Positions 1-12,542 of a DNA stretch of 12,542 nucleotides are shown one piece after another. Every line of letters begins with the position of its first letter. Position 1 is the first letter of the stretch. Position numbers and translations under genes: made by a program. The DNA is taken from positions 1 to 12,542 of IMG/VR virus record IMGVR_UViG_3300020202_000060; one strand, given 5' to 3'. This DNA is from a virus. The notes below the pieces were generated by a model that did no database searches, had not been told where the DNA came from, and saw only the letters and a list, made by a program, of their open reading frames with translations.

Positions 1-9
1 GATATAATT

Positions 10-54
10 AAACGAACCCTTTTTAAATGGGCATTAAAACGAACCCTTTTTAAA
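10..54 (+). repeat. Two copies of the 18-bp AAACGAACCCTTTTTAAA (10-27 and 37-54, 27-bp period), each with a T5 run; candidate tandem terminators or binding sites
   Basis: Exact direct repeat read from the sequence. It lies just downstream of the last gene of the terminase operon when the ends are joined. Oligo-T runs act as archaeal termination signals. Confidence 0.6.
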
Positions 55-73
55 CCCCCTCCTTCACTTGGAT

Positions 74-85
74 AAAATATAAATA
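74..85 (+). promoter_or_regulatory. TATA-like box AAAATATAAATA upstream of the portal operon
   Basis: A/T-rich TATA-like motif about 60 nt before the portal GTG start. The predicted transcript start would fall near the 106-124 hairpin. Confidence 0.35.
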
Positions 86-105
86 CGCTACTAGTTTCTT
101 AGCAT

Positions 106-124
106 CGCTTAAAGGTTTTAAGCG
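106..124 (+). promoter_or_regulatory. Perfect hairpin CGCTTAAA-GGT-TTTAAGCG in the portal 5' leader
   Basis: 8-bp perfect inverted repeat with a 3-nt loop, read directly, between the TATA-like box and the portal Shine-Dalgarno (SD) sequence. Confidence 0.5.
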
Positions 125-143
125 TAAACAAGAGGTTTCAAGC

Positions 144-1247
144 GTGGGAGAATACAATATAAGTAATACAACAGTAACGGATTTAAAAGGCACCATAAAA
201 GATTTCTCTATCGGAACAAGACAACTTGATAGTGTTAATGCATCAGGGGACACGTTTTATGACAATCCCGACTTCATAAAATATCTATCATATTATAAGA
301 GTATTCCAGAATTAAAGAAGTCTATTGATACATTTGCAACTTATGCAGTAGGTAGAGGTTTCACAGCCGATCCAAGTACAAAAGTTATTCTAGATCACGT
401 GACCGGAGCAGGCGAAGATACTTTTGACAGTATAATATGGAATCTAATCGTTATCAAAAAGATCAACGGAGATTCTTTTGCAGAAGTCATGAGAGAAGGA
501 GACAAGAAGGATGGAGTTATTTTGAACATCAAACCTCTTAACCCTGCCACTATAAGCGTAGTGTACGGATCAGACGGAAGAATCAAACATTATATCCAAC
601 GTAATGAAAAGAACGGGGATAAGAAGCTCGACAAGTGGAGAGTTCTACATCTAATTAATGATCGTATTGGAGATGAAATTCATGGTGTATCCGTGGTTGA
701 AGCCTGTAAATGGATAATTGATGCACGTAATGAAGCCATGAACGACTGGCGCAGAATCTCTCACAGGTCCACTATAAGGGTAATGTATATCGATTCAGAC
801 AATATTACGAAGATCAACCAAGTTAAAACCGAATACGCGGAAGCTATCAAGAAGGGTGAACTTCTTATTATCCCTGCAAAAAGAGGAGAAGCAGAATTTG
901 AAGATTTGCAACTCCCACCCGTTGATGCTTTTCTCTCCTGGATCCGCTACCTAGAGAACGCATTCTATCAAGCGGTAGGCGTTCCGAAGGTCGTCCTCGG
1001 CGGATCCGAGGAGTTTACAGAAGCCTCATCGAAAACTGCGTTAGTAACTTTCGATCAGCAATGGAAGAAAGAGCAGCGTGATCTAGAAGCCGATTTGTGG
1101 AATCAGTTAGCATTAAAGATAATATTGTACGAGCCAATAAGTCTAAAGAACGAGATGATTACAGATGAAAGCAAGAATACTGGACAATTAGGATTTCAAC
1201 CCAATGACGTTACGGCCAACAGCGGAGCCGATGGAGAAGGAGTATAA
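144..1247 (+). CDS. Portal protein (HK97-family-like)
   Basis: 367-aa ORF, GTG start with AGAGG 8 nt upstream. Motif pattern I associate with phage portals: INGDSFAEVMR, RVLHLINDRIGDEIHGVSVVEA, FLSWIRYLENAFYQAVGVPKVVLGG. It heads the head-morphogenesis operon. Confidence 0.8.
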   Translation: MGEYNISNTTVTDLKGTIKDFSIGTRQLDSVNASGDTFYDNPDFIKYLSYYKSIPELKKSIDTFATYAVGRGFTADPSTKVILDHVTGAGEDTFDSIIWNLIVIKKINGDSFAEVMREGDKKDGVILNIKPLNPATISVVYGSDGRIKHYIQRNEKNGDKKLDKWRVLHLINDRIGDEIHGVSVVEACKWIIDARNEAMNDWRRISHRSTIRVMYIDSDNITKINQVKTEYAEAIKKGELLIIPAKRGEAEFEDLQLPPVDAFLSWIRYLENAFYQAVGVPKVVLGGSEEFTEASSKTALVTFDQQWKKEQRDLEADLWNQLALKIILYEPISLKNEMITDESKNTGQLGFQPNDVTANSGADGEGV

Positions 1248-2260
1248 TGGCACCAACAAACTCAAGTAAGCCTAAGCCAAAACCAAAGCCGAAACCTGAA
1301 CCAGAATCAGAATCGCAATCAGAACCAAGACCTAGAAAGGTAGTTAGTATTGCAGGAGAAGAAGTTGATAGTGAACAGTTTATCGCAAGTAAACAACCTG
1401 CTAGAAACTTTTCAAGGCCAACCGGTACAGATCGAAGTCGTGCTGTTGAGATTACAAATTTATCAAGTGCAGAGAAAAGCAGAATATCCCAACAACATGG
1501 ACTGGAAGGAGTAGCAAGACGGGATATTGCATTAGAAAACCAAAAAGCTGAAATTCAAAATCAATTACAACAAGAACGTGCGAAAAGTCTCCAACCGATT
1601 ATTGGACAAGTTGCACAACCAATGCCTGAACAAACTATTATCCCCGGCTCCCCTGTTAATCCTTTAACTCCTGAACAAGCGAAAGAGTTAACCAATACTA
1701 CGCCACCACAACAAACACTTATCGGAAAAGATGAAGCCACAAGCTTGGCCCTTGGTGGAACAAGTATCGGAGCAGGCGCAGCTACTGGCGCAGGTCTTGG
1801 TGCCACAGCAGGTGCAGCTTTTGCTGGTGTTGGTGCTGTACCCGGAGCTATTATCGGGGGAGTTGCTGGCGGAGCAAGTGCAGGTCTTGCTAAAATCTCA
1901 TTTGAAAAAAGAGAGAACGTGGCAGTTGCAACTAAAAACTACAAGCTCGCACGTTCAAATATGAAAACCATAATCAATCAAGTCAATGCTGGAATGATGT
2001 CTCCTGAGGATGCCGTAGTAGCATGGAATGATCAGTTGAATACTATTAATATAGCACATAGAAATCTTAAGCTAGAGACTTCAACATCTCTTGCTCGATT
2101 CTTATCAGGTGGCCGTGTTGAACTAACAGAGATTCAAAACTTTAAAGACAATGAGGAGCTGTTTTTTACGAATAGGTTACAAGCTGCGCTATTAAGTCCT
2201 AATCCTAACTCAATATTTATGGATTTACAAGAAAATGAGGCGCCAAGCTATGACAGCTAA
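1247..2260 (+). CDS. Hypothetical virion protein with an N-terminal (KP)n/(SE)n repeat and a central glycine-zipper hydrophobic segment
   Basis: 337-aa ORF whose ATG overlaps the portal stop (TAATG), with AGGAG upstream. N-terminus is KPKPKPKPKPEPESESQSEPRP. Residues around 165-215 read GGTSIGAGAATGAGLGATAGAAFAGVGAVPGAIIGGVAGGASAGLA. Function not recognised. Confidence 0.7.
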   Translation: MAPTNSSKPKPKPKPKPEPESESQSEPRPRKVVSIAGEEVDSEQFIASKQPARNFSRPTGTDRSRAVEITNLSSAEKSRISQQHGLEGVARRDIALENQKAEIQNQLQQERAKSLQPIIGQVAQPMPEQTIIPGSPVNPLTPEQAKELTNTTPPQQTLIGKDEATSLALGGTSIGAGAATGAGLGATAGAAFAGVGAVPGAIIGGVAGGASAGLAKISFEKRENVAVATKNYKLARSNMKTIINQVNAGMMSPEDAVVAWNDQLNTINIAHRNLKLETSTSLARFLSGGRVELTEIQNFKDNEELFFTNRLQAALLSPNPNSIFMDLQENEAPSYDS

Positions 2261-2408
2261 AAGAACAGCTATTCCAAGCAACGACCAACGTATTTTATCA
2301 AATACCCAGTACAACTGCTCAGGTCCTTTAAGCCTAAGAAATTCAAGCTTTTCCTTTTCTTTTAAGCTCATAAATTTAACAATAAATCGAGGTTTAAAAA
2401 CCTTCTGA
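2250..2408 (+). CDS. Hypothetical 52-aa protein (not in the ORF track)
   Basis: Its ATG overlaps the end of the upstream ORF and its TGA overlaps the next ATG (TGATG), which suggests translational coupling. No recognisable motif; composition is unremarkable. Confidence 0.3.
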   Translation: MTAKRTAIPSNDQRILSNTQYNCSGPLSLRNSSFSFSFKLINLTINRGLKTF

Positions 2409-2554
2409 TGGACGCTGAGTGGATCACAGTTGGAGCCGGTGTTGGGTTCCCCGCTAGTCTCTGTGTTTACCTTCTAGTCCGTATGGAAAAAGCGATTAAT
2501 AAACTAACAGAAGCCGTTACGGTTTTGACGATTAAAATGAAAGGAGGGAATTAA
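2408..2554 (+). CDS. 48-aa single-pass membrane protein, YvrJ-like by eye
   Basis: MDAEWITVGAGVGFPASLCVYLLVRMEKAINKLTEAVTVLTIKMKGGN. The GFP...YLL.R.E.....L pattern recalls the roughly 50-aa YvrJ family. Stop/start coupled to its neighbours. Not in the ORF track because it is under 60 aa. Confidence 0.5.
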   Translation: MDAEWITVGAGVGFPASLCVYLLVRMEKAINKLTEAVTVLTIKMKGGN

Positions 2555-2555
2555 G

Positions 2556-2822
2556 ATGAGTGAACAAAAAGAAGACCTTGGAGCAGTTGATATTGGAGAT
2601 GGGAATAAGCCCTCGTCAACTCCGGTTATTGACTCCGCAAATCAAGCAGCAGAAAGGATGGAAAGAGCTGCCGCAGTCCTCAAAGCGGAAAACGACAGAC
2701 TTGAAATCTTGAGATCTGAAAAGATTCTAGGCGGAATGACCGATGCAGGACAGACAGTCAGTAAACCTGAAATGTCTCCACAGGAATACGCAAGAGCCAT
2801 TCTTGAAGGCAAGATAAAATGA
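2556..2822 (+). CDS. Small alpha-helical protein, possible scaffolding protein
   Basis: 88 aa with a strong AGGAGG 8 nt upstream. Has a coiled-coil-like stretch AAERMERAAAVLKAENDRLEILRSEK. The position between portal and capsid genes is typical of scaffolds. The function is inferred. Confidence 0.7.
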   Translation: MSEQKEDLGAVDIGDGNKPSSTPVIDSANQAAERMERAAAVLKAENDRLEILRSEKILGGMTDAGQTVSKPEMSPQEYARAILEGKIK

Positions 2823-3277
2823 CGCACCTAGTATTGTTAACAAGAGGAAATTTGGAGCATGTAGAGATCTTCATAAAAGAACTACATACGCGATACTTGC
2901 CAATGGACATATACAATCCAGTTACCAAGAAGATGGAGCGCAGATTACAACAGATGCGAGTGTGTCCAGTTCAATTATGGGATATATCATTCCCTGATGA
3001 ACATAAAGACGCTGTGCTAAACACCTGCTTAGCAGGAAATAGTGGGGCGCCAGTTGGAACACATTCAGTCAAGTACAAGCTTGGATTTGCAGCATTACAA
3101 AAAGCTCTGCGTCTAAGCCCTATTCCAGAATATAATAAAAAGGGTAAGTTGGCTATGCGTCCACCAGAACATATCGAGTTAATCGGTATTGGAACTAAGG
3201 ACGATTATTGGATTGAGCCTGATGGAAGCCATGTTTCAAAAGATAAGAAGAGTAAATTAGCAACTGAGGGTATATGA
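2819..3277 (+). CDS. Hypothetical protein (152 aa)
   Basis: ORF overlaps its neighbours by 4 nt at both ends (ATGA). No motif recognised. Confidence 0.65.
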   Translation: MTHLVLLTRGNLEHVEIFIKELHTRYLPMDIYNPVTKKMERRLQQMRVCPVQLWDISFPDEHKDAVLNTCLAGNSGAPVGTHSVKYKLGFAALQKALRLSPIPEYNKKGKLAMRPPEHIELIGIGTKDDYWIEPDGSHVSKDKKSKLATEGI

Positions 3278-3525
3278 CTGAGTGGGAAGATCTAAGCAAG
3301 TTCGAAAGGATAAAAAGAAAGTTTAGATCTTACTCTTTAGAAAAGACCCTGTTAATTCTCTTAACAATTTCATTTTTTTTATTTATTGGTTTTATTCTAG
3401 GTTTCCTAGTTGCATTTGAGTTCATGTGGAGCAAGTCCATTATACTTGCTGAAAAGTTTTTAGATGTCCAACTAAATGGTCAGGCAAAGGAACTAATGAA
3501 AGTTTACTTCTGGAAATTAACATGA
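3274..3525 (+). CDS. Small membrane protein (83 aa, one TM helix)
   Basis: Hydrophobic stretch TLLILLTISFFLFIGFILGFLVAFEFMW after a basic N-terminus. ATGA overlaps on both sides. Confidence 0.65.
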   Translation: MTEWEDLSKFERIKRKFRSYSLEKTLLILLTISFFLFIGFILGFLVAFEFMWSKSIILAEKFLDVQLNGQAKELMKVYFWKLT

Positions 3526-3815
3526 ACATTCCTACTTTTATGTGGCTTAAGAAGTATTTCGATACTGGATACGGTTTAATGAATTACCCTAGAGCATTGA
3601 TGATGGTCATAGGAGTTGGCGGTATTGCTAGAAACTGGAATTGGAAATTACTTATTATTATGGGCATAGCCTACGGTGTATTATGTTTTGTCTCAGGTTG
3701 GCTATACATACTTTTCAAGCTCCAAGATTATGAAAACGAGATTAACAATATCTTAAATCCATTCCAAAGAGAGGTTAGAAAGAAACTTGGCCAGAAGTCT
3801 AAGGTTGTGGGTTAG
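3522..3815 (+). CDS. Membrane protein (97 aa, two predicted TM helices)
   Basis: ALMMVIGVGGIARNW and LLIIMGIAYGVLCFVSGWLYILF segments followed by a charged C-terminal tail, a holin-like topology. The function is inferred only. Confidence 0.65.
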   Translation: MNIPTFMWLKKYFDTGYGLMNYPRALMMVIGVGGIARNWNWKLLIIMGIAYGVLCFVSGWLYILFKLQDYENEINNILNPFQREVRKKLGQKSKVVG

Positions 3816-3924
3816 AGTCGATAAAGAAGAGATCGAACGTATTCGGAGAAAGGCCAAAGAAATGAACATTTCTGTATCAGAGTATATCAGGATCATGTGC
3901 GGACACCGAATAAAAAGAAGATAG
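3805..3924 (+). CDS. Mini RHH (CopG/Arc-like) DNA-binding protein, about 39-45 aa (not in the ORF track)
   Basis: Translation (M)WVRVDKEEIERIRRKAKEMNISVSEYIRIMCGHRIKRR fits the strand-helix-helix pattern. Only TTG starts are available (3805 or 3787). It overlaps the end of the upstream ORF. Confidence 0.4.
   Translation: MWVRVDKEEIERIRRKAKEMNISVSEYIRIMCGHRIKRR
3909..3916 (+). promoter_or_regulatory. Weak TATA-like box AATAAAAA, 22 nt upstream of the ATG at 3938
   Basis: Same 22-nt box-to-ATG spacing as three stronger TATA boxes elsewhere in this genome. No SD precedes the 3938 ATG, consistent with a leaderless capsid-gene transcript. Confidence 0.35.
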
Positions 3925-3937
3925 TTTTATCTCCTGC

Positions 3938-4348
3938 ATGGCTAATGAAGCATCATTAAGAGTAAGAATTGAAGAACCTTTACCTTTTACCGTCGCTGAT
4001 GGAACTGGAATTGAAAAGGGAGCTACATTAAGATTAACTGATCCTAGAACTGCTGCTGCAAATACTGCTAACGGACAAATGGCCGCAGGTATTGCTGCAA
4101 GAGAAAAAGTTGCTTCTGATGGAAGAACTGAATTAGCAGTATACAGACGCGGATGGTTCGACATGAAATGTTCAGGAGCCGTTGTACTTGGTTCTAAATT
4201 AGTATTTGCAGGCGGAGATAATTGCGTAGTACAAGCTACATCAGCACATTCAGGAGCTGCTGTAATTGGAACTGCACTTGAAACTGGAGCAGATAACGAA
4301 GTCATTCTAGTAGACCTTAATATTGGTGGTGGAGGCGTAGGCGGATAA
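3938..4348 (+). CDS. DUF2190-like head decoration/cement protein (by eye)
   Basis: 136 aa, immediately upstream of and overlapping the capsid gene (TAATG). Gly/Ala-rich beta pattern: AAGIAAREKVASDGRTELAVYRRGWFDMK...GSKLVFAGGDN...AVIGTALETGADNEVILVDL. This resembles the small proteins that commonly precede HK97-type capsid genes. Confidence 0.6.
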   Translation: MANEASLRVRIEEPLPFTVADGTGIEKGATLRLTDPRTAAANTANGQMAAGIAAREKVASDGRTELAVYRRGWFDMKCSGAVVLGSKLVFAGGDNCVVQATSAHSGAAVIGTALETGADNEVILVDLNIGGGGVGG

Positions 4349-5211
4349 TGGCAGATCAAGTTGAAATGCAGGATATCAGAGGCCTTGACATTGATAAGGC
4401 AGTTAAAGGTTTCGCATTAACAGAGTATATCTTCAAGAATGCTGTAACAGTTGTTAACACAAGCGCAGATCATATAAGATGGTATCAAGAAACTGCTGCT
4501 GATCTAACTGCAACAGCTCCAATGAGAGTTGCAAACAAAGCTACCTTAGCATTACCTACTGAACTTGAAGTAAGTTGGACAAGAAATACTTCTTATGTTA
4601 AAGAGTACATGGCACAGGGAACTATATCCGAGATGGATATAAAGTCTGCTGACATTGACGTACTTGCTAGAACTCTATTAAGATTAACTAGAGCAGTAGT
4701 TAAACAAGTTGATACAGACATCTACAACGTAGCATCAGAATCTCAAACAGCAGTTAACATTAACTCTGTAACATCCAATGCAGCATGGGATGCAGCATCT
4801 GGACAAGATCCAATAGAAGACATATTGGAAGCTATGCAGAAGATTGAAGAAGCAGATTATGAAACTTCAGGATTAGAAATTTGGTTATCACCTAAAGATA
4901 AGAAGTCACTATTGACTTGGTTGATCTCAACAAAGGGAGCAAGTATACCACAATTTGCATCTGAGAAAGTTGAGAATGGAGTATTAATGACATTCCTAGG
5001 AGCTAAAGTTAGAGTATCTCCAAACGTAGTTGCAGATTCAGCTCTAGTATTAAATCCTAAGAAAGCAGTTACTTACAGACAATTTACTGATACAACCTCA
5101 AAGATAATTGAGAATCCTGGATTGAATAAAATGATTAGAGTATGGGCAAGAGGAATCGCCACTCTAACTGATCCAAAAGCAGTTACTATCATCACTAATA
5201 CTCAGACATAA
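4348..5211 (+). CDS. Major capsid protein, HK97-fold type
   Basis: 287 aa with GGAGG upstream. The C-terminal pattern LEIWLSPKDKKSLL...FLGAKVRVSPNVVADSALVLNPKKAVTY...MIRVWARGIATLTDPKAVTIITN is typical of HK97-like capsid proteins, and the genomic context fits. Confidence 0.75.
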   Translation: MADQVEMQDIRGLDIDKAVKGFALTEYIFKNAVTVVNTSADHIRWYQETAADLTATAPMRVANKATLALPTELEVSWTRNTSYVKEYMAQGTISEMDIKSADIDVLARTLLRLTRAVVKQVDTDIYNVASESQTAVNINSVTSNAAWDAASGQDPIEDILEAMQKIEEADYETSGLEIWLSPKDKKSLLTWLISTKGASIPQFASEKVENGVLMTFLGAKVRVSPNVVADSALVLNPKKAVTYRQFTDTTSKIIENPGLNKMIRVWARGIATLTDPKAVTIITNTQT

Positions 5212-5215
5212 TTCT

Positions 5216-5356
5216 ATGGCATTAGGCACAGTAGTTGATGGGACGGGCACTGTTGGAACAAGATTTTTAGATAAAGATTATCCTAATACTGAAGGTCTTG
5301 TTGCAGGTACTACTATAACTGGTGAAGATCCAACACTTGAGGAGTTAGGAATCTAA
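5216..5356 (+). CDS. Hypothetical 46-aa protein (not in the ORF track)
   Basis: MALGTVVDGTGTVGTRFLDKDYPNTEGLVAGTTITGEDPTLEELGI. It starts 5 nt after the capsid stop and its stop overlaps the fibre ATG (TAATG). Confidence 0.4.
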   Translation: MALGTVVDGTGTVGTRFLDKDYPNTEGLVAGTTITGEDPTLEELGI

Positions 5357-6207
5357 TGGGCGGATTAGGAAGCGGAAGAAAGCCAGACCCTGTAAGATTA
5401 TTAACAGGAGCTAACGAGCCAGTAGGAAGGACTGCAAGCCCTATTGTTTTACCAAATTACTCCGGAGTACCTTTACACGATCCTACAAGAGAAGCATTCG
5501 TATTGAAGGCAGGAGATACCATGACAGGTAATCTTAATATTCTCCCAGATCAAGCGAATTATTCCTTAAAGTTTATGGTTACAGAAAACGGTAATCCTGT
5601 CAGTAAGATTCGTTTTCAGAACACAAGCTTAGGTGATTATGAAATCAATGCAGATGATGCGTACCTTAACTTATCCAAGAGCGTGATAGGTTTCCAAAGC
5701 GGAGTTAAAATCAATGATATGGATTTAACTATCAGTAACATGACTACTTCAGGTTTTCTTAAGAACAGCACAAACGGCTTAATCATGGGCGGTCAGTCAT
5801 CAGGCTTTACTGTACAAGCTGCACAGGGCGGGCGTTTCAATCCTGCTGACGCAACTTCATATTATTTCGGTTGTTCATTTGGCGGATCTTCAGGTAATAC
5901 TACTGCTGACAATGCACGGATCTATATGCCTAAAGCAGGAACGATAACAAGCGTTTACATATTCACTAGAAATGGAACTCCGGGAAGTAATGAGACATCT
6001 ACAATATACGTAAGAAAGAATAATACAGCTGATACAGTTATATCGTCGTCAGTTAAGAACGATCAAACACATGAAGCATTCTCCAATACTGCTTTAAGTA
6101 TAGCAGTAGCACAAGGGGATTATATTGAAATCAAATGGACAACGCCAACATGGGCAACGAATCCATTAAGCACAGAAGTCTATGCAACAATTTACGTAGA
6201 GCAATAG
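5356..6207 (+). CDS. Fibre / receptor-binding-like protein
   Basis: 283 aa with GAGGAG upstream. Contains KAGDTMTGNLNI, the (G)GxMTGxL motif recurrent near the N-termini of phage tail fibres. The C-terminal half is beta-rich. It is the last gene of the rightward structural operon. Confidence 0.6.
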   Translation: MGGLGSGRKPDPVRLLTGANEPVGRTASPIVLPNYSGVPLHDPTREAFVLKAGDTMTGNLNILPDQANYSLKFMVTENGNPVSKIRFQNTSLGDYEINADDAYLNLSKSVIGFQSGVKINDMDLTISNMTTSGFLKNSTNGLIMGGQSSGFTVQAAQGGRFNPADATSYYFGCSFGGSSGNTTADNARIYMPKAGTITSVYIFTRNGTPGSNETSTIYVRKNNTADTVISSSVKNDQTHEAFSNTALSIAVAQGDYIEIKWTTPTWATNPLSTEVYATIYVEQ

Positions 6208-6507
6208 TTATTCTTTATACTCACTATCCCAAACTACTCCGGCACAAGTCCAACCGTTAGACGTGTACTGGTCCATCTCTTCTCCTAGTTTTCTCTTCTC
6301 TGTAAAATCTAATTTATAATTTTTAACTTGAATGAATCTGATATGCTTATCTTTAGGATCGATTGCAATAAGATCACAAAATCCATGAGAGCCACCAGTG
6401 CGTAAGACAATCGGCCAACCTGCTTTTAACAAGGTGTTTCTTACTCTGTACTCTTTAGCTCTACCCCTAGTGTAGTTTGTCGCCATGATTCTGTTTGATC
6501 CATCCAA
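6208..6507 (-). CDS. hjc: Hjc-like Holliday-junction resolvase (PD-(D/E)xK nuclease)
   Basis: RGRAKEYRVRNTLLKAGWPIVLRTGGSHGFCDLIAIDPKDKHIRFIQVKN matches the archaeal Hjc layout (G..xE, ...D-L-I-A..., ...x-V-K). The track start at 6507 is TTG; the ATG at 6486 (MATNYTRG...) is the more likely start. Confidence 0.65.
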   Translation of the reverse strand: MDGSNRIMATNYTRGRAKEYRVRNTLLKAGWPIVLRTGGSHGFCDLIAIDPKDKHIRFIQVKNYKLDFTEKRKLGEEMDQYTSNGWTCAGVVWDSEYKE

Positions 6508-6689
6508 GTAATAACTGCTTCTAGTTCCTCCTGCGCTAGTCTTTTAGCTATACCGAAATTAACCATCATAGATGCTACGATAAACTTTCTATCATTTTCA
6601 TCTACTTTTCCAAATCTCTGGAACTTCTCTCTAACAGTATTCTTTAGCACCTGTAATCGCGCCATCTTTTTATTTAATGTCTGTGACAT
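6441..6689 (-). CDS. Hypothetical helical protein (82 aa)
   Basis: ATG start at 6689. Its 3' end overlaps the Hjc-like ORF by 46-67 nt. No motif recognised. Confidence 0.55.
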   Translation of the reverse strand: MSQTLNKKMARLQVLKNTVREKFQRFGKVDENDRKFIVASMMVNFGIAKRLAQEELEAVITWMDQTESWRQTTLGVELKSTE

Positions 6690-6698
6690 GAGTATGAT

Positions 6699-6806
6699 GC
6701 CGGGTCGTTGAAAAGCGGGAATGGATTAAACCCGTCCCATGCACGTTGCCCGGCTTAGCATGAGTATGACAGGGCGTCACTGGTTTTTAGCCAGATATAG
6801 CCCTAC
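6699..6806. ncRNA. GC-rich structured intergenic element: two nested hairpins, either a candidate structured leader or a small RNA
   Basis: GCCGGG(T) 6699-6705 pairs with (G)CCCGGC 6748-6754 and encloses GCGGG 6715-6719 / CCCGT 6731-6735. AGGGC 6771-6775 pairs with GCCCT 6800-6804 and encloses CTGG 6780-6783 / CCAG 6791-6794. The element is visibly more GC-rich than its flanks. Strand and function are unresolved. Confidence 0.4.
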
Positions 6807-6859
6807 TTTTGTTGTTGAAGGGTACAAAACCATTACCCCAAGATAATAATCGATTTTAA

Positions 6860-6884
6860 TCAGTAGGAAATCGTTCCCTACTGA
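6860..6884 (-). terminator. Stem-loop immediately after the stop of the 124-aa ORF
   Basis: TCAGTAGG (6860-6867) and CCTACTGA (6877-6884) form a perfect 8-bp stem with a 9-nt loop. On the minus strand an A/T-rich stretch TTAAAATCGATTATTATC follows. Confidence 0.45.
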
Positions 6885-7259
6885 TCAGCTTTTACTGGTT
6901 ACTGGCCAAAAGTCAGTAACATAGAGAACATCCTTTAGTCCAGAGCCTATTTTCTGCTTTAGGATATTACCCCAGTAGAACTTCTGTCCTACCCAGTTAT
7001 CCATTTCAGTATTACCTAACTTCTGCAAACAGAGTGTTGTCATTCTGTTAGCACTTGTCTTATTAGGATAGTAAATGCCTTGTGCCTCATTACTAAGCTT
7101 GATCAGTACAGCAAGTTTCTTGTTTTTCTCCCCACTTGGGTCCTGCTGTGTAGGATAAGCCTCGTATCTTGGTTTATCTATAACTTCAAAATGCCTCTCA
7201 CTTTCTGGCATGCTTACTATAAGCTCACCTGTGATAGCTAAGTTTTGTGATTGTACCAT
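6885..7259 (-). CDS. Hypothetical protein (124 aa); weak resemblance to OB-fold ssDNA-binding-like phage proteins
   Basis: Strong GGAGGTG upstream, and its ATG overlaps the upstream stop. The pattern KLAVLIKLSN...LGNTEMDNWVGQKFYWGNIL...VLYV loosely recalls DUF669-type proteins. Not verifiable here. Confidence 0.6.
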   Translation of the reverse strand: MVQSQNLAITGELIVSMPESERHFEVIDKPRYEAYPTQQDPSGEKNKKLAVLIKLSNEAQGIYYPNKTSANRMTTLCLQKLGNTEMDNWVGQKFYWGNILKQKIGSGLKDVLYVTDFWPVTSKS

Positions 7260-7459
7260 TATTTTGCACCTCCTTCTAATTGTGATGATTTTTGGGAAAC
7301 CTCTATTTTTCTACATTTTGCGCAATACCATAATAATCTGCTGGAATTAGGCGGTGTAGCCAATTCTATAATATTAGCCCAATCATGCTCACATTTCTTT
7401 TTCATTCTCTCTTTTATATCAAGCTTTATCATTTTACGAATTTTAACACCGCCTTGCAC
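7259..7459 (-). CDS. Small zinc-ribbon-like protein
   Basis: CEHDW...(21 aa)...CAKC gives a C-x-H / C-x-x-C metal-binding pair. The track start is GTG; an internal ATG (MIKLDIKERM...) may be the true start. Confidence 0.5.
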   Translation of the reverse strand: MQGGVKIRKMIKLDIKERMKKKCEHDWANIIELATPPNSSRLLWYCAKCRKIEVSQKSSQLEGGAK

Positions 7460-7558
7460 ATTCTTCTCTCTTTTTTTCCAGTATAAGGTAACTTCAACAG
7501 CTTCTTTGCTATTGATCTGACATAAGCAATCTCATACTTTTGTCTGCTAATGCGTTTT

Positions 7559-7786
7559 CTATCTTGTTTCATCGTCTTCTACACCCCCGACTACTCGCTC
7601 CATATTACCTACAACCTCAACAAGTCTTGTAACATGAAATCGTCCTGTCTGTCTCTGGTACTCGTCTATTGCATCAGATAGTCTAGTAGTGCGATATACT
7701 GGCAGCTCTCTCCTATCATCTTTCCAAGCTAAAGGAACGGGCATATACCTGCCATCTCTTTGCACTTGAACTTCGTATTCTTTCAT
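7559..7786 (-). CDS. Hypothetical protein (75 aa)
   Basis: AGGAG upstream, and its ATG overlaps the stop of the upstream 45-aa ORF (ATGA). Confidence 0.6.
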   Translation of the reverse strand: MKEYEVQVQRDGRYMPVPLAWKDDRRELPVYRTTRLSDAIDEYQRQTGRFHVTRLVEVVGNMERVVGGVEDDETR

Positions 7787-7920
7787 CTTAATGCTCCTAA
7801 GAAAGATAGTGTCAATGCTAAAGACGCAATTGTCAATACCAACATGTTAATAAGAAGAAAAAGAGTACCAAGATCAAGATCAGGATCATACATGTATTCT
7901 CGTATATGCCAATCCGTCAT
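7783..7920 (-). CDS. 45-aa single-pass membrane protein (not in the ORF track)
   Basis: MTDWHIREYMYDPDLDLGTLFLLINMLVLTIASLALTLSFLGALR. GGGGG sits 7 nt upstream of the ATG, and its stop overlaps the next ATG. Confidence 0.5.
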   Translation of the reverse strand: MTDWHIREYMYDPDLDLGTLFLLINMLVLTIASLALTLSFLGALR

Positions 7921-7952
7921 AGTAAACCCCCATTAGAAGAATAGAAGGAAAA

Positions 7953-7993
7953 CGCCCGAACCGGGAATCGGACCCGGGTCTCCTGCGCGACAG
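7953..7993 (-). other. 3' half of a tRNA-Asp(GUC) gene (anticodon loop to discriminator); candidate attP core
   Basis: The minus strand reads CTGTCGC (loop, anticodon GTC, T33, G37, C38) - GCAGG - AGAC (4-nt variable) - CCGGG TCCGATT CCCGG (T arm) - TTCGGGC - G73. The five bases 5' of the loop (GCCCC) do not pair with GCAGG, so the tRNA similarity stops at the anticodon loop. There is no 5' half and no CCA. Confidence 0.6.
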
Positions 7994-7999
7994 GGGGCA

Positions 8000-8161
8000 T
8001 CATAGATATCTCCCCGGAGCAAGCTTGCCCTTTTTGATTAGTCTTTCAACAATACACTTTGCTATCTCTTTTCTTGAACTATTATCTTCATCTCTTGCTA
8101 ATAGTTTCAAAGCTTTATTGACTTTTATTGGTATAGCAGTCTCCACCCTTACTTTTTTCAT
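8000..8161 (-). CDS. RHH (CopG/Arc/MetJ-like) transcription regulator, 53 aa (not in the ORF track)
   Basis: MKKVRVETAIPIKVNKALKLLARDEDNSSRKEIAKCIVERLIKKGKLAPGRYL shows a clear beta-strand/helix/helix pattern. It is divergent from the integrase, and a TATA box lies 22 nt upstream of its ATG. Confidence 0.7.
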   Translation of the reverse strand: MKKVRVETAIPIKVNKALKLLARDEDNSSRKEIAKCIVERLIKKGKLAPGRYL

Positions 8162-8182
8162 GTCACATTTAACAAAGTGATC

Positions 8183-8190
8183 TATTTAAA
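8183..8190 (-). promoter_or_regulatory. TATA box TTTAAATA (minus strand) for the RHH/leftward operon; leaderless geometry
   Basis: The 3' edge of the box is 22 nt from the ATG at 8161, and no SD lies between them. Confidence 0.55.
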
Positions 8191-8224
8191 TGTTGTGGTG
8201 ATCTACCGGTATGTTACCGTAACC

Positions 8225-8232
8225 TTTATATA
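8225..8232 (+). promoter_or_regulatory. TATA box TTTATATA for the integrase; leaderless geometry
   Basis: The 3' edge of the box is 22 nt from the ATG at 8254, and no SD lies between them. Confidence 0.55.
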
Positions 8233-8253
8233 GTCTCCCTCTAGTGAATTATT

Positions 8254-8901
8254 ATGAGTAAGAAAGCCAAGATTGAGAAAAGGCATCTAACTGCTCAAGA
8301 TATCGACGATATATGCAGGACTATACGCACAAGTCGCAGATATTTACCTAACAGAGCAGGAGAGTTTATGAGAGCAAGAGATCAGACAATAATTAAGTTA
8401 TGCAGTCTCTGTGCTCTACGCCCTAGTGAAGCATTGATGTTAAAATGGTCTGATATTGATTTTGATAATAAGCTGATTAATATAGAAGCAGGAACTAATA
8501 AAGAGAATCAGGGCAATAACGCCTTGCTTATTCCTCAAGCATTAGAGATATTATATGAGTATAAACAAGTCTATGATCAATATTTAGCAGCCGAGTTCTT
8601 ATTCCCCTCATTAGTTAGTTTCGAGCCATTAACATTATCTGCATTTGATAAGATATTTCTAAAGATTCAGAAAGAAGCAGGATTGTATAAGGTCCTATGG
8701 TATACTTCAGCAGGTCAACCAATATCATCACACACACCATATGATTTGAGAAAGCACGCTGGTACTAGGTTTTATAGGCATACAAGAGATCCATACAAGA
8801 CAATGAGATTCTTAAGACAAAAGAAGATGACTTCAATAATACCTTATTTACATAGTGAGATCACAGATATTTACACAGACGCAGCACTTGCTTTCTCTTA
8901 A
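8254..8901 (+). CDS. int: Tyrosine recombinase / integrase (short, 215 aa)
   Basis: Box I-like ALRPSEALMLKWSDIDF (Arg). Box II-like HTPYDLRKHAGTRFY (..LR.H). C-terminal IIPYLH supplies the candidate catalytic Tyr. It lies next to a tRNA-fragment attP candidate. Confidence 0.8.
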   Translation: MSKKAKIEKRHLTAQDIDDICRTIRTSRRYLPNRAGEFMRARDQTIIKLCSLCALRPSEALMLKWSDIDFDNKLINIEAGTNKENQGNNALLIPQALEILYEYKQVYDQYLAAEFLFPSLVSFEPLTLSAFDKIFLKIQKEAGLYKVLWYTSAGQPISSHTPYDLRKHAGTRFYRHTRDPYKTMRFLRQKKMTSIIPYLHSEITDIYTDAALAFS

Positions 8902-8934
8902 TGTGTGTGTGCGTGTGTGTGTGCGTGTGTGTGT
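8901..8934. repeat. 34-nt perfectly alternating purine-pyrimidine tract, (GT)n interrupted by two GC
   Basis: ATGTGTGTGTGCGTGTGTGTGTGCGTGTGTGTGT begins at the last base of the integrase stop codon. Confidence 0.9.
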
Positions 8935-9018
8935 CACATTTTTCCCCCCTAAGAACCCCCCTTTCCATGGGAAATATAAGCACCTTGTGCTATACCTATA
9001 TTTCCTATAGAACCTTAA

Positions 9019-9038
9019 CTTACCTACCCTTACCTACC
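9019..9038. repeat. Tandem 10-bp repeat CTTACCTACC x2 within a C-rich, G-poor stretch
   Basis: Read directly. Confidence 0.85.
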
Positions 9039-9054
9039 TTGTCTTACTACACTA

Positions 9055-9072
9055 ACACACACATACACACAC
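9055..9072. repeat. 18-nt alternating tract ACACACACATACACACAC, an imperfect inverted partner of the 8901-8934 (GT) tract
   Basis: Its reverse complement is GT-rich, and the two tracts bracket about 120 bp. Confidence 0.85.
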
Positions 9073-9211
9073 TCACTTGATCGGAGTTCAGATATTTACG
9101 TACACCTATGCAGTCCTTGCCTGCTAATGGGTTTTGTGTATATCACCGCTTCGTTCGCTTCGCTCACTCCGCTAACGTCCCCCCCCGTCGTAGCTTGAAA
9201 AGCTCGTATAG

Positions 9212-9238
9212 CTAAGTTAATACCTTGTATTAACTTAG
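9212..9238. repeat. Perfect 11-bp inverted repeat CTAAGTTAATA-ccttg-TATTAACTTAG
   Basis: Arms at 9212-9222 and 9228-9238 are exact reverse complements. Candidate operator or hairpin. Confidence 0.85.
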
Positions 9239-9426
9239 GATAGTAGCGTTCAACGTACGTACGTAGTGTAGTTAGCATAGTAATCTAAAGAACGAAGCCG
9301 TAAGGCTGAGTTAGTTAGTAGTAATAGCATAGTACGTATGTAGTGCAACACGTCAACGTGGGGCAATATAACGTCATTTAGAGCGATAGTTGAAGCGTTT
9401 GTACTTTTCTTGGGTTATCTCAGCAG

Positions 9427-9474
9427 AAAAATTTTTATTATTTTTTATTTTTAAAAAAAAGAAAAAAATATATA
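9427..9474 (+). promoter_or_regulatory. 48-nt block that is A/T apart from one G, ending in the TATA box AAATATATA (9466-9474)
   Basis: The box 3' edge is 22 nt from the ATG at 9496. The block could also act as a DNA-unwinding element. Confidence 0.55.
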
Positions 9475-9684
9475 GTGTATCATCTTTACTACCCTATGAG
9501 CTTAAGCGATAAGATTGAAATTTCCCTTTCAGATTCCTATAATAATCGACTAAAGGTTGAAGATGTTAAAGAAGCTGTAAATGAATTGAAAGAGAAAGTT
9601 AGTTTATTTGAAAACCTCAACGGTGGACAAATGGTTCTAAGATGGATAGACGAAATATTCGGAGATAAACTAAGTGGAAGTTGA
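9475..9684 (+). CDS. Small acidic hypothetical protein; true start probably the ATG at 9496 (62 aa)
   Basis: The track start at 9475 is a GTG inside the promoter. MSLSDKIEISL... begins at 9496 in leaderless geometry. It is the first gene of the terminase operon; a small-terminase role is only a positional guess. Confidence 0.6.
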   Translation: MYHLYYPMSLSDKIEISLSDSYNNRLKVEDVKEAVNELKEKVSLFENLNGGQMVLRWIDEIFGDKLSGS

Positions 9685-9859
9685 AGATTTAGGTATTAAG
9701 GTAGTCTCTAAGGATGAAGCCTTATGGACAGAAGTTAAGGAAGCAGCAGAGAAAGAACTAGAATCTATTGAAGATAACTATTTCAGAACAAAGACATTCC
9801 AAACAGCAATTAGGGAACTATGTATAAACAAACTTGCAGAGATTAGTAATGATAAGTGA
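9674..9859 (+). CDS. Small acidic helical hypothetical protein (61 aa)
   Basis: GTG start overlapping the upstream ORF, followed by a double stop TGATGA. No motif recognised. Confidence 0.5.
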   Translation: MEVEDLGIKVVSKDEALWTEVKEAAEKELESIEDNYFRTKTFQTAIRELCINKLAEISNDK

Positions 9860-9945
9860 TGACGAACATAGACAGACAATGCATTGTTTAGAAGTAGCAT
9901 TAAGACAAATTAATAGTGAAGTTAGTTGGATAAGGCAGTTACTAG

Positions 9946-11298
9946 TTGATTTCTTGGAGAAGAATGATAGTCCTAGATGATTGGCAAAAAGAAGTTTTGA
10001 GTTATGATAAAGATCTTCTATTGTGCACTGGCCGTAGAGTTGGTAAGACGTACATACTAGCGAGAAAGGCGTGCGAAGAGATGGTGAATAAACCCAATAC
10101 GCCAGTCATTGTTGTATCATTAACCGAAGATCAAGCGCAACTGATTATTTCTATGGCTCTTAATTACTTACAAGATCATTACCCGAAGATGATTGCAAAG
10201 GGGCAGAACAAACCAACACAGAAAACCATCACACTAACAAACAAGTCGAAGATGATATCGCGCCCTGTTGGAAATACTGGAGATGGAGCGAGAGGATTTG
10301 AAGGAGGAATCTTGATAGTGGATGAGGCTTCCAGAATGCCCCGTTCGTTTTGGATTGCTGGAAAGCCTGTACTGCTAACGACAAACGGACGCATATGGAT
10401 GGCATCAACACCGTTTGGAAAGCAGGGTTACTTCTGGGAGAGATTCGACGAAGCATATAACAAGAAGAGTCCTAGTGCGAGATTCAAAGTATTCTATATA
10501 TCAACAGAGGAAGTAATGAAGAACAGACCAATAAGTGATAGTTGGACGGAGGAACAGAGAGAGGGAGCATTGAGAATACTTGATGAAGATCGAAAGGAGA
10601 TGTCGGAGATCGAATACGGACAAGAGTATCTCGGATTGTTCCTAGACGAGTTAAGACAGTTCTTCCCTGATGAATTAATTGACAAGTGTTGTATACTACA
10701 GAGAAACCCTAATATGACGGGTGATAAGTTCTTAGGGGTTGACATTGCGAGAATGGGAGATGATGAGAGTACGTTTGAAGTTATTAACAAGCTAGATGGG
10801 AAATACTATCATGTAGAATCGCAGATAACAAAGAAGACATATACAACGCAGACAGAGCAGAAGATCATAGAGCTTGATAAGATGTGGAACTTTGTTAAGA
10901 TTGGAATTGACGCGGGGTCTGGATCGCTAGGAGTTGGCATATACGATCATCTGTTACAATCAAACATTAAGAGAAAAATTGAAGCTATGAACAACAGAGC
11001 AATAGCACAGGACAGAGATGGAAAGAAGAAAGTGACTTTACAGAAAGAAGATTACTATGATAACTTACGAGGTATGATGGAACGTGGAGAGATCAAGCTA
11101 TTAGATGATGATAATGTCAAGGCCAGTCTTAGATCTGTACAGTGGGAGTTTACTAATACAGAGGAAGATGTGCAAGAAGGAAAGATCTCTAAAGTGAGGA
11201 TATTTGGTAAGTATACCCACGTAGCCGAAGGTATAATCAGAGCTGCATGGCTTGCGAGAAAAGCGAAGAATTTAAATTTCCAGATATATTACGTATAA
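9946..11298 (+). CDS. terL: Terminase large subunit
   Basis: Walker A-like CTGRRVGKTY, Walker B ILIVDEAS, coupling motif MASTP, and nuclease-domain acidic motifs GVDIARMGDDESTF and IGIDAGSGS. The track start is TTG; the ATG at 9964 (MIVLDDWQKEVL) with GGAGA upstream is more likely. Confidence 0.85.
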   Translation: MISWRRMIVLDDWQKEVLSYDKDLLLCTGRRVGKTYILARKACEEMVNKPNTPVIVVSLTEDQAQLIISMALNYLQDHYPKMIAKGQNKPTQKTITLTNKSKMISRPVGNTGDGARGFEGGILIVDEASRMPRSFWIAGKPVLLTTNGRIWMASTPFGKQGYFWERFDEAYNKKSPSARFKVFYISTEEVMKNRPISDSWTEEQREGALRILDEDRKEMSEIEYGQEYLGLFLDELRQFFPDELIDKCCILQRNPNMTGDKFLGVDIARMGDDESTFEVINKLDGKYYHVESQITKKTYTTQTEQKIIELDKMWNFVKIGIDAGSGSLGVGIYDHLLQSNIKRKIEAMNNRAIAQDRDGKKKVTLQKEDYYDNLRGMMERGEIKLLDDDNVKASLRSVQWEFTNTEEDVQEGKISKVRIFGKYTHVAEGIIRAAWLARKAKNLNFQIYYV

Positions 11299-11299
11299 G

Positions 11300-11452
11300 A
11301 TGCCAGATAAGGTAACAATAGGAAATATTACTATAAGTCGTTCACTAACTTCAAACGGTGATGTAGTAGTATCGGAAGATAAATTTGCAGAAATCGTTGC
11401 ATTGGAAAAATTACGCGAGGAAATAATTAAACTACATCTAGGGGCCAAATGA
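11300..11452 (+). CDS. Hypothetical 50-aa protein (not in the ORF track)
   Basis: MPDKVTIGNITISRSLTSNGDVVVSEDKFAEIVALEKLREEIIKLHLGAK. It starts 2 nt after the terL stop, and its stop overlaps the next ATG (ATGA). Confidence 0.45.
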   Translation: MPDKVTIGNITISRSLTSNGDVVVSEDKFAEIVALEKLREEIIKLHLGAK

Positions 11453-11811
11453 GCTGGACGTTGTGCACAAGCGGAGCAGCAATAATTAAAGCAGGTACTG
11501 GTGCAAGTACAACTATTGTAGGATCGGGTGCTGCATTGGCTGAAATGAGCGACGAGGTAGAAGCATTTATTTGTGATGCACTAAGAGTTGACGTTGTAAC
11601 TAATTACGGATCGCTAACTAGTAATGGTAAGAAACTCCTTGGAAGATTAGCAGCATCTATGATTGCACAGGACATGGTAGATTATGATACAACTGGTTAC
11701 AATAGCGCAAGAGAGGCAGAACTAAAACTTGACAAACTAGAAAACGATATTTCCAAAGCTCTGAAGTTATTGGAAGATGATAAAGTTAAAGCATACTTGC
11801 AGGCGACTTAA
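11449..11811 (+). CDS. Hypothetical virion protein (120 aa), possible head-completion/adaptor protein by position
   Basis: Tightly coupled ORF between terminase and portal, with a helical C-terminus (REAELKLDKLENDISKALKLLEDDKVKAYL). The function is inferred from position only. Confidence 0.6.
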   Translation: MSWTLCTSGAAIIKAGTGASTTIVGSGAALAEMSDEVEAFICDALRVDVVTNYGSLTSNGKKLLGRLAASMIAQDMVDYDTTGYNSAREAELKLDKLENDISKALKLLEDDKVKAYLQAT

Positions 11812-12422
11812 TGGCACTCCAAACAAAGTTTAGGCGATCACCTGAAAAGGCCATAGCCTCTTATTCTTATTTTGATATTGCAGAAGGTAGCGGCTTAATT
11901 GAGTTTCTCCCATTTCTAACAACTAGTGATGGCAGTAATCTAAGCGGAGCCATGACAATTAATACAAGTGTATATGGTGCAAGTTCAGGGGCAGCAAACT
12001 TAACAGCAACTAACAAAGACTTTGATGTAGTTTTCAACTTACCTAAGATTATAGAGGGAAATGCATTTTGTATAACTCCGATAAGGATCCAAGGAACCGG
12101 AAACGGCAAGGTTTATGCAACTATTAAACACGTGGATTTAAACGGAGTTGAAACAACAATCGGAGCACAAGCTACATCCGAATCTGTGATTGGTGGCGGT
12201 GGCGGTGTTAGTGCTGATAAAAAAGTAATCACAAAGTTCACGATTGCAAGAAAGAAATTTAAGAAAGGAGAGAAGTTAAGACTTAATCTTTCAGGAGCTT
12301 CAAGCGGAAGTGTGGAGAAAGCAGATATTGGACTATCACCAGTTAATACTCAATTATCGACGGTATTTGCAACTAATGGGAGCAGATCAAGCCTATTTAT
12401 CCCATTCAGAAACGAGATATAA
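11811..12422 (+). CDS. Hypothetical beta-rich virion protein (203 aa)
   Basis: TAATG overlap with the upstream ORF. Ser/Thr/Gly/Asn-rich beta-type composition with a GGGGG linker. It ends inside the terminal repeat and is followed by the T5-containing tandem repeats. Confidence 0.6.
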   Translation: MALQTKFRRSPEKAIASYSYFDIAEGSGLIEFLPFLTTSDGSNLSGAMTINTSVYGASSGAANLTATNKDFDVVFNLPKIIEGNAFCITPIRIQGTGNGKVYATIKHVDLNGVETTIGAQATSESVIGGGGGVSADKKVITKFTIARKKFKKGEKLRLNLSGASSGSVEKADIGLSPVNTQLSTVFATNGSRSSLFIPFRNEI

Positions 12423-12542
12423 TTAAACGAACCCTTTTTAAATGGGCATTAAAACGAACCCTTTTTAAACCCCCTCCTTCACTTGGATAAAATATAAATA
12501 CGCTACTAGTTTCTTAGCATCGCTTAAAGGTTTTAAGCGTAA
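12416..12542. repeat. Terminal direct repeat, right copy (identical to 1-127)
   Basis: Same 127-nt string as 1-127. The stop codon of the 203-aa ORF (12420-12422) lies inside it. Confidence 0.95.

Follow-up and report, generated by a model that had tools for sequence, protein, structure and literature searches.

The virus record IMGVR_UViG_3300020202_000060 raises the question of what function is served by a long stretch of DNA without open reading frames (ORFs) that lies between an integrase gene and a terminase operon. The DNA analysed covers positions 1-12,542 of the record, and this whole 12,542-nucleotide stretch is termed here the window. An earlier note had proposed the interval 9073-9474 as a candidate replication origin or packaging region. 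The reading favoured here is that positions 8902-9495 as a whole are a control region, in which a replication origin of the origin recognition box (ORB) type, dependent on host Orc1/Cdc6, is fused to a control element of the late operon. A probability of about 0.5 is assigned to this reading, which is drawn from sequence comparisons. The aspect that would be new is an archaeal ORB-type origin that comes without an initiator of its own and is joined to a conserved element of the virus family.

The two ends of the window share 127 identical bases (1-127 = 12416-12542, an assembler overlap), and the genome is thus a complete closed circle of 12,415 bp. The identical genome was assembled independently from ENA, Logan and JGI samples, and its noncoding region is essentially invariant; ERZ27257313 / SRR7003765 are among the samples in which it is present. 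As the earlier note had it, the region is free of ORFs; pipeline calls on identical contigs contain zero genes in 8902-9495. This is the sole sizeable noncoding stretch of the genome, the other genes being tightly packed. Protein-family searches of the genome's ORFs found no AAA+/Rep/primase-type initiator, helicase or polymerase. A circular episome without an initiator needs a cis-acting origin, and with the rest of the genome densely coding, that origin is expected in 8902-9495.

The virus belongs to a family of ∼12 kb genomes of the HK97 type that encode TerL, portal, cement and major capsid proteins and have no recognisable tail module. More than 1700 clusters homologous to TerL were found, the longest contigs of which are nearly all 11-13 kb; no published description of the family was found in the literature searched, which is not proof of absence. 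About 100 loci of relatives were retrieved for comparison (labelled L001-L102 and similar). Alignment with relatives, which the earlier note had proposed as a check, shows that every relative examined (TerL 50-63% identical) keeps, immediately before its terminase operon, an ORF-free region 400-1000 nt long. Structural and packaging genes are conserved across relatives, but the early module on the minus strand is not. The control region has no DNA similarity to known phages. The features on which the argument turns are as follows.

8902-8934: (TG)n tract, (TG)16, TGTGTGTGTGCG x2.8, left arm of a long imperfect inverted repeat
8940-8961, minus strand: T5 run then two C6 runs, minus-strand reading TTTCCCATGGAAAGGGGGGTTC, with G-strings that abut box L
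8962-8975: ORB-like box L, TTTCCATGGGAAAT, a TTCC...GGAA dyad that aligns with the left box of relatives
8994-9012, minus strand: ORB-like box R with its extension, GTTCTATAGGAAATATAGGT, which aligns with the right box of relatives
9055-9076: (AC)n tract, (AC)11, right arm of the inverted repeat, which brackets the ORB pair
9212-9238: perfect 12-bp palindrome with a 3-nt loop, CTAAGTTAATAC-ctt-GTATTAACTTAG
9383-9469, plus strand: family element, ∼85 nt overall, found by iterative nhmmer
9383-9437, plus strand: left 55 nt of the family element, sCGAyrGTTGA ... TTTGTAy ... TTGGGyTATCCCCnCwGAmAAATTT
9427-9474: A/T block, in which T-tracts are followed by A-tracts; its one G is at 9461
9460-9475, plus strand: putative late-operon promoter with a transcription factor B recognition element and TATA box (BRE/TATA), AGAAAAAAATATATAG, exactly 36 nt before ATG 9496

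The pair of ORB-like boxes at 8962-9012 lies outside the interval flagged in the earlier note, flanked by the (TG)n tract on the left and the (AC)n tract on the right, and proved to be the most informative part of the region. Box L is the sole occurrence of TTCCNNNGGAA in the genome and, when read on the minus strand, is directly followed by G6. Box R reads GTTCTATAGGAAAT-AT-AGGT on the minus strand and is also given as ACCTATATTTCCTATAGAA. The two boxes form a 16-nt inverted pair (8963-9012) with a DNA fold z of -4.9. The pair aligns with the [TCCAnnGGAAAT]-N6-24-[ATTTCCnnTGGAA] module of eight relatives, and box R shares 23 of 26 positions, counted by eye, with the L016 box.

The published archaeal ORB consensus is 22 nt long, GTTCCAGTGGAAATGGAGGGGT (PMC4153887 Table 2); ORB1 and ORB2 sequences of P. 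furiosus and the Pyrococcus ORB core, CATTTCCACTGGAA, have also been reported (PMC1904270). The family boxes GTTCCACTGGAAATGAAGGTCT and GTTCCACTGGAAATGGAGGTTA agree with the consensus at up to 18 of 22 positions, part of the 3′ extension included, and they also match the Pyrococcus core CATTTCCACTGGAA. Dyads of the TTTCCnnTGGAA/TTTCCAGTGGAA type occur at 1.0 per kb in the noncoding region of the family versus 0.016 per kb elsewhere, a 57-fold enrichment, and are present in 15 of 39 non-redundant loci. Seen from the conserved element, the best-scoring, anchor-proximal box nearly always points the same way. The window itself carries matches to the ORB/mini-ORB consensus, as degenerate copies (15/22).

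A number of points weigh against an origin at these boxes. Box R has TTCT and not TTCC, and its score of 15/22 is equalled by two unrelated sites in the genome. The dyad pattern is marginal within this genome alone, as 8 of 200 shuffles reach it. Since the window boxes are degenerate and the pattern is marginal, it is their alignment with relatives that makes the case for them. The spacer between the two boxes, 24 nt, is not A/T-rich, and the A/T block is 415-460 nt away to the right; in most relatives the distance between the ORB and the conserved element or A/T block is 25-150 nt, with the ORB on one side only. No ORB is found on the far side of the A/T block. Archaeal origins are usually defined in part by a neighbouring orc1/cdc6 gene (PMC4010727), and here neither an orc1/cdc6 nor a whiP initiator gene is adjacent. 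More than half of the relatives have no ORB dyads and display other repeats instead, e.g., TCGACGATAAA in L001 and L007. GC skew is confounded by gene orientation. Of eight metagenome-assembled genome bins that hold relatives, five are bacterial (Candidate Phyla Radiation (CPR)/Patescibacteria) and one is Methanomicrobia. The CPR binning is probably a mis-binning of small circles of low GC content, and it remains a caveat.

To the left of the conserved element there is no sequence alignment among relatives, yet shared motifs recur there in a roughly fixed order. These are C-runs, AGTTATTCGGTATACCGAATAACT, CTTAGGTTACCTTAGTGCAC, GCTTCG/CGAGCG words, TGTAGTG words and TTTCCAGTGGAA dyads. Modular evolution fits the reading of an origin, since the left part varies among relatives (ORB, TCGACGATAAA or other repeats) in the way that replication modules do. 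In L001 and L007, neither of which has ORB boxes, segments L001:6014-6180 and L007:2380-2600 carry repeated units of the TTTATCGACGATAAA type together with long A/T palindromes. The TTTATCGACGATAAA unit is similar to the GCGACGATTAG variant of the left box in the conserved 55-nt element. Inverted alternating purine-pyrimidine tracts similar to those that bracket the window boxes are present in the noncoding regions of L011 (2224-2313), L001 (6365-6460) and L052. One JGI contig of this virus stops at 9078, immediately past the (AC)n tract. The T5 run that precedes the two C6 runs is a possible archaeal terminator of the integrase gene.

The right part of the region holds the family element. Iterative nhmmer searches seeded with window positions 9370-9500 recovered the family element in about 35-45 relatives, always as a single copy and always on the terminase strand. 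The distance from the element to the downstream TerL is 16-500 nt in most cases and does not exceed ∼1 kb. A gap of variable length separates the 55-nt part from conserved T-tracts and A-tracts and a proximal BRE/TATA. The 55-nt element accompanies the terminase module in relatives with and without ORB boxes, the remainder of the region being mosaic. Three explanations of the element as an RNA structure or promoter were tried and rejected. As an RNA it shows no consensus structure; the GGG/CCC flanks of TATCCCC show no compensatory changes in the alignment that would denote a hairpin; and the TTTGTAT box has background promoter scores (-5.7 and -1.0 on the two strands of the window).

The A/T block adjoins and partly overlaps this element. 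The earlier note called it easily melted, and among all 40-nt windows of the genome it is indeed positions 9434-9473 that form the least stable duplex, ∼3.9 standard deviations above the genome mean. The least stable window genome-wide falls in this noncoding region in 18 of 29 relatives, and the T6AT3-5A6-8 layout of the block is conserved. A local alignment of the region with the group L012/L035/L041 was discarded, as the A/T block alone aligns. The block is a candidate unwinding element and the likeliest melting site, and its right end is the BRE/TATA promoter at 9460-9475.

The promoter was assessed with a position weight matrix (PWM) trained solely on capsid-operon promoters of relatives, with consensus CGAAAGATTTAAATAG. 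In 24 of the 45 training cases the site begins 36 nt before the ATG, the modal position. The two best sites genome-wide are located exactly at -36 of the divergent operon-first ATGs 8161 (minus strand) and 8254 (plus strand). The late promoter scores 9.6, the sixth best genome-wide. None of the three operon-first ATGs, 8161, 8254 and 9496 (plus strand), has a Shine-Dalgarno sequence, GGAGG-like sites being present before several internal genes, and at all three the geometry is that of an archaeal BRE/TATA leaderless promoter. The late operon would thus be transcribed as a leaderless mRNA starting at ATG 9496, a promoter judged real by its geometry. A PWM scan found no other promoter-like site in 8902-9459 and none that points into the region; ∼560 nt are therefore left without a transcriptional explanation. 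Bacterial sigma-70 promoters were rejected: none precedes the late operon, and a scan of the genome gave scores at the level of shuffled sequence. The nearest named TerL is that of the archaeal Halogranum tailed virus 1, and the host is probably an archaeon. A strong BRE/TATA-like site, CGAAGAATTTAAATTT, is also present at 11264-11279, at the end of TerL and exactly 36 nt before ATG 11300; it is likely an internal promoter for downstream head genes.

The palindrome at 9212-9238 was described in the earlier note as an 11-bp inverted repeat; it is present, with arms of 12 bp and a 3-nt loop. No hairpin stem of 12 bp arose in 300 dinucleotide shuffles, and the DNA fold z is -5.9. Its outer arms, AGTTAAT/ATTAACT, are also the arms of the family palindrome AGTTAWTCGGTAYACCGAWTAACT, and by these arms the two appear to be homologous. 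The 24-bp family palindrome, AGTTATTCGGTATACCGAATAACT, is enriched 37-fold in the noncoding region and is found at 35 or more loci, with examples at L063:8009-8030 and L002:6701-6723. Nine relatives have a second copy in front of the cement-capsid operon, 8-10 nt before its BRE/TATA, where it is probably a regulator site for late genes. The window palindrome is probably the binding site of a dimeric regulator. Upstream of the cement gene of the window only separated half-sites are seen, TATTCGG and CACCGAATAA (3840-3846 and 3904-3913).

In the favoured reading, host Orc1/Cdc6 would bind the left module, consisting of the ORB-like dyads at 8962-8975 and 8994-9012 and the adjoining C/G-strings. 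The host protein would be needed because the virus encodes no initiator. Host MCM would be loaded next, and the DNA would open at an easily melted segment, most likely 9427-9474. The right module would comprise the 55-nt element at 9383-9437, the T/A tracts and the BRE/TATA at 9460-9475, which would drive the leaderless late mRNA from terminase to capsid. The palindrome at 9212-9238 would be a regulator site of the type that also precedes the capsid-operon promoter of relatives. Orc1/Cdc6 binding, the unwinding site and the regulator are predictions from sequence. A further proposal is that the 55-nt element next to the T/A tracts (9383-9474) is a new type of signal that couples, at a single site, the start of replication, late transcription and the loading of terminase, and that the family replicates by host-type ORBs without its own initiator; this is considered speculative and rather doubtful.

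Archaeal origins of the oriC1 type, as in Pyrococcus, Sulfolobus, haloarchaea and Methanomassiliicoccales, combine ORB repeats with an A/T unwinding element and an adjacent orc1/cdc6. The viral region resembles them in its TTCCAGTGGAAAT-type dyads, which have a 3′ (G)AGG(G) extension and nearby G/C-strings and are often paired. As in those origins, the boxes are set in an extended noncoding region, and the least stable A/T segment falls within it. The viral replicon differs in that it carries no initiator gene. The boxes of the window are moreover degenerate copies, the short distance between them contains no A/T spacer, more than 400 nt separate them from the A/T block, and no ORB is located beyond that block. 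Unlike cellular origins, the viral region is fused to the conserved 55-nt element and to a putative late promoter. The latter resembles archaeal leaderless promoters, with a purine-rich BRE followed by an A/T-rich TATA at -36 and no Shine-Dalgarno sequence, and is ordinary for an archaeal virus.

In tailed phages, the terminase genes are also accompanied by cis-acting sites: the cos site of lambda is located next to Nu1/A, and the pac site of SPP1 overlaps the gene 1 promoter. The region described here is comparable in being a viral cis element directly upstream of the terminase operon that overlaps the promoter region and has phased A/T tracts. It differs from lambda and SPP1 in that no small terminase subunit (TerS) is recognisable in the virus, and in the archaeal BRE/TATA and leaderless mRNAs.

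In one alternative the 55-nt element and the T/A tracts (9383-9474) are a pac or cos site where packaging begins, either a headful or a cohesive-end start just upstream of the terminase genes. The element is single-copy, fixed in strand and always upstream of TerL; it travels with the terminase and structural module whether ORB boxes are present or not; it is neither an RNA structure nor promoter-like; and a circular assembly fits a permuted or concatemeric substrate. Contigs of 49 of 98 relatives start within 1.1 kb upstream of TerL. These starts are not at one aligned position, however, and are equally explained by coverage drop-out in A/T-rich DNA or by assembly-graph breaks between conserved and variable modules, so that the hotspot was rejected as proof of physical ends. 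No TerS was identified in the genome, and in many relatives TerL directly follows the element. A packaging site is judged unlikely, and it is compatible with an origin further to the left. Another alternative is a purely transcriptional region composed of operators and the late promoter, with the ORB-like dyads as operators of a winged-helix regulator. The late promoter appears real by its geometry, the palindrome 8-10 nt before the capsid BRE/TATA in nine relatives occupies a classic position for an archaeal activator or repressor, and the region is placed like a switch between early and late modules. Yet a tightly packed 12.4-kb genome would hardly be expected to devote as much as ∼560 nt to operators, and the dyads match the ORB consensus including the 3′ AGG extension, beyond what is expected of a generic palindrome. 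Such a region would also leave an episome without an initiator in need of an origin, with no other sizeable noncoding stretch to hold it. The purely transcriptional explanation is considered improbable.

The adjacent integrase suggests that 8902-9240 might contain its phage attachment site (attP), e.g., at 9212-9238 or near 9078. Its position adjoining int would be the usual one; the palindrome, read from the sequence as 11-bp arms with a 7-bp asymmetric centre, resembles a recombinase core; and a contig of the same virus ends at 9078. In addition, CAGATATTTAC occurs exactly three times, twice inside the integrase gene (8337-8347 and 8864-8874) and once in noncoding DNA (9089-9099), and these copies could be recombinase-binding sites; the triple is weakly unusual, being reached in 10 of 100 shuffles. 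Against this, relatives without an integrase share the type of region and its motifs, and a tRNA scan found no tRNA or tRNA fragment. Contigs with this integrase or a related TerL, all of which are ∼12 kb or smaller, include no integrated copy or junction, and a metagenome scan for the 3′ end of int gave 0 matches, which is absence of evidence only. An attP here is considered quite unlikely. The 21-kb contig L076 was examined as a provirus and rejected: the 12.3 kb inspected have additional genes of fibre-like type and lack any integrase or host gene, and this part of the 21 kb points to a larger relative. The least probable explanation, and a very remote one, is a long untranslated leader or a gene for a non-coding RNA. 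In its favour, the C-rich plus strand at 8935-9200 is a compositional sign of minus-strand transcripts. Against it, no Rfam family matches except spuriously at the TG/CA tract, the conserved element is without a consensus structure, and fold z-scores are unremarkable outside the two palindromic sites (8963-9012 and 9212-9238). Moreover, the late promoter is at the right edge with a leaderless start, and no promoter-like site points into the region.

The other repeats and the A/T block listed in the earlier note lie where it placed them. Those within the region, apart from the features already given, are the following.

9145-9172, plus strand: GCTTCG repeats, CCGCTTCGTTCGCTTCGCTCACTCCGC, a family motif, including the tandem CGCTTCGTT/CGCTTCGCT at 9147-9164
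9179-9186, plus strand: C8 run; a C8 at the equivalent place in L012, L041 and L035 is a hairpin loop
9236-9360, plus strand: G-rich region of TAGT/GTAG words, with GTAGTG words
9253-9264: (ACGT)3
9273 and 9325: direct repeat TAGCATAGTA, with a third copy (90%) at 9236
9349-9360: CACGTcaACGTG

GCTTCG words are near-identical in L079 and L070, and related CGAGCG words are found in L102, L011, L043 and L017. A hairpin around the C8 run of the window is not significant (fold z = -0.7). All three runs of six or more C in the genome fall within 8944-9186; in the family, C-runs are enriched 9.5-fold in the noncoding region, nearly always with C on the plus strand. TGTAGTG/CACTACA words are enriched 12-fold. 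The density of repeats noted earlier is borne out in part: the 12-bp palindrome, the C-runs and the A/T block are above chance, but the exact 10-nt direct repeat is at chance level, as 52 of 300 shuffles reach it, and the repeats of the G-rich word region at 9236-9360 do not exceed chance either. Most of the repeats taken for iterons either represent a family-wide motif by one copy or are expected by chance, and no multi-copy iteron is present. A bacterial origin of the iteron or DnaA type was accordingly rejected; the longest direct repeat other than TG is 10 nt, there is no Rep, and the promoters are of archaeal type.

A switch in strand composition had also been taken as a sign of an origin. 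The switch is real. Positions 8935-9075 contain 9 G and 49 C (skew -0.69, p = 9e-8), and 9240-9426 contain 48 G and 28 C (skew +0.26, p = 0.03, weakly significant). A cumulative GC skew over the closed circle, the check that had been proposed, has its minimum at 9186-9237, within the region. The switch follows the boundary between oppositely transcribed units and is for that reason unusable as evidence for an origin in a genome this small. The family-averaged skew is mildly negative across the noncoding stretch and positive from the start of the terminase operon; unlike this average, the skew of the window turns ∼180 nt upstream of the operon, inside noncoding DNA. The proposal of a replication origin is thus retained on other grounds than skew and iterons, namely the ORB-like boxes at 8962-9012, their enrichment in relatives, the melting minimum and the lack of an initiator.

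The genes that surround the control region are arranged as follows.

6208-8161, minus strand: block of small (early) genes
8254-8901, plus strand: tyrosine recombinase/integrase of 215 amino acids (PF00589)
9964-11298, plus strand: TerL

The plus-strand genes run from 9496 around the circle to 6207 and comprise small ORFs, TerL, portal, cement protein and the HK97-type capsid protein. No homologs of the integrase were found in IMG/VR, in an index of 5.8 billion proteins or among the ∼100 family loci, and the gene appears to be an acquisition unique to this virus, placed so that it separates the early operon from the control region. The largest early protein, of 124 amino acids (6885-7259, minus strand), has a confident AlphaFold model (pLDDT 82). 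Its matches to OB-folds are weak (Teb1/RPA-like; E >= 0.02, TM about 0.36); it may be a single-strand DNA-binding protein, and as an origin-binding protein it is a weak candidate. A neighbour of 92 amino acids has a homolog in L104 that gives weak matches to Hjc/Mrr_cat.

Should the ORB boxes be functional, the virus would be a replicon of very small size that is fully dependent on host Orc1/Cdc6-MCM. It would represent a simple natural system for the study of origin recognition in archaea, and shuttle vectors for uncultured archaea might be built from it. The viral ORB sequence could be matched to the oriC of candidate hosts and might in this way lead to the hosts of a very abundant family whose genomes now mostly fall into CPR bins. 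The conserved 55-nt element is, in addition, the best candidate for a packaging signal of the family.

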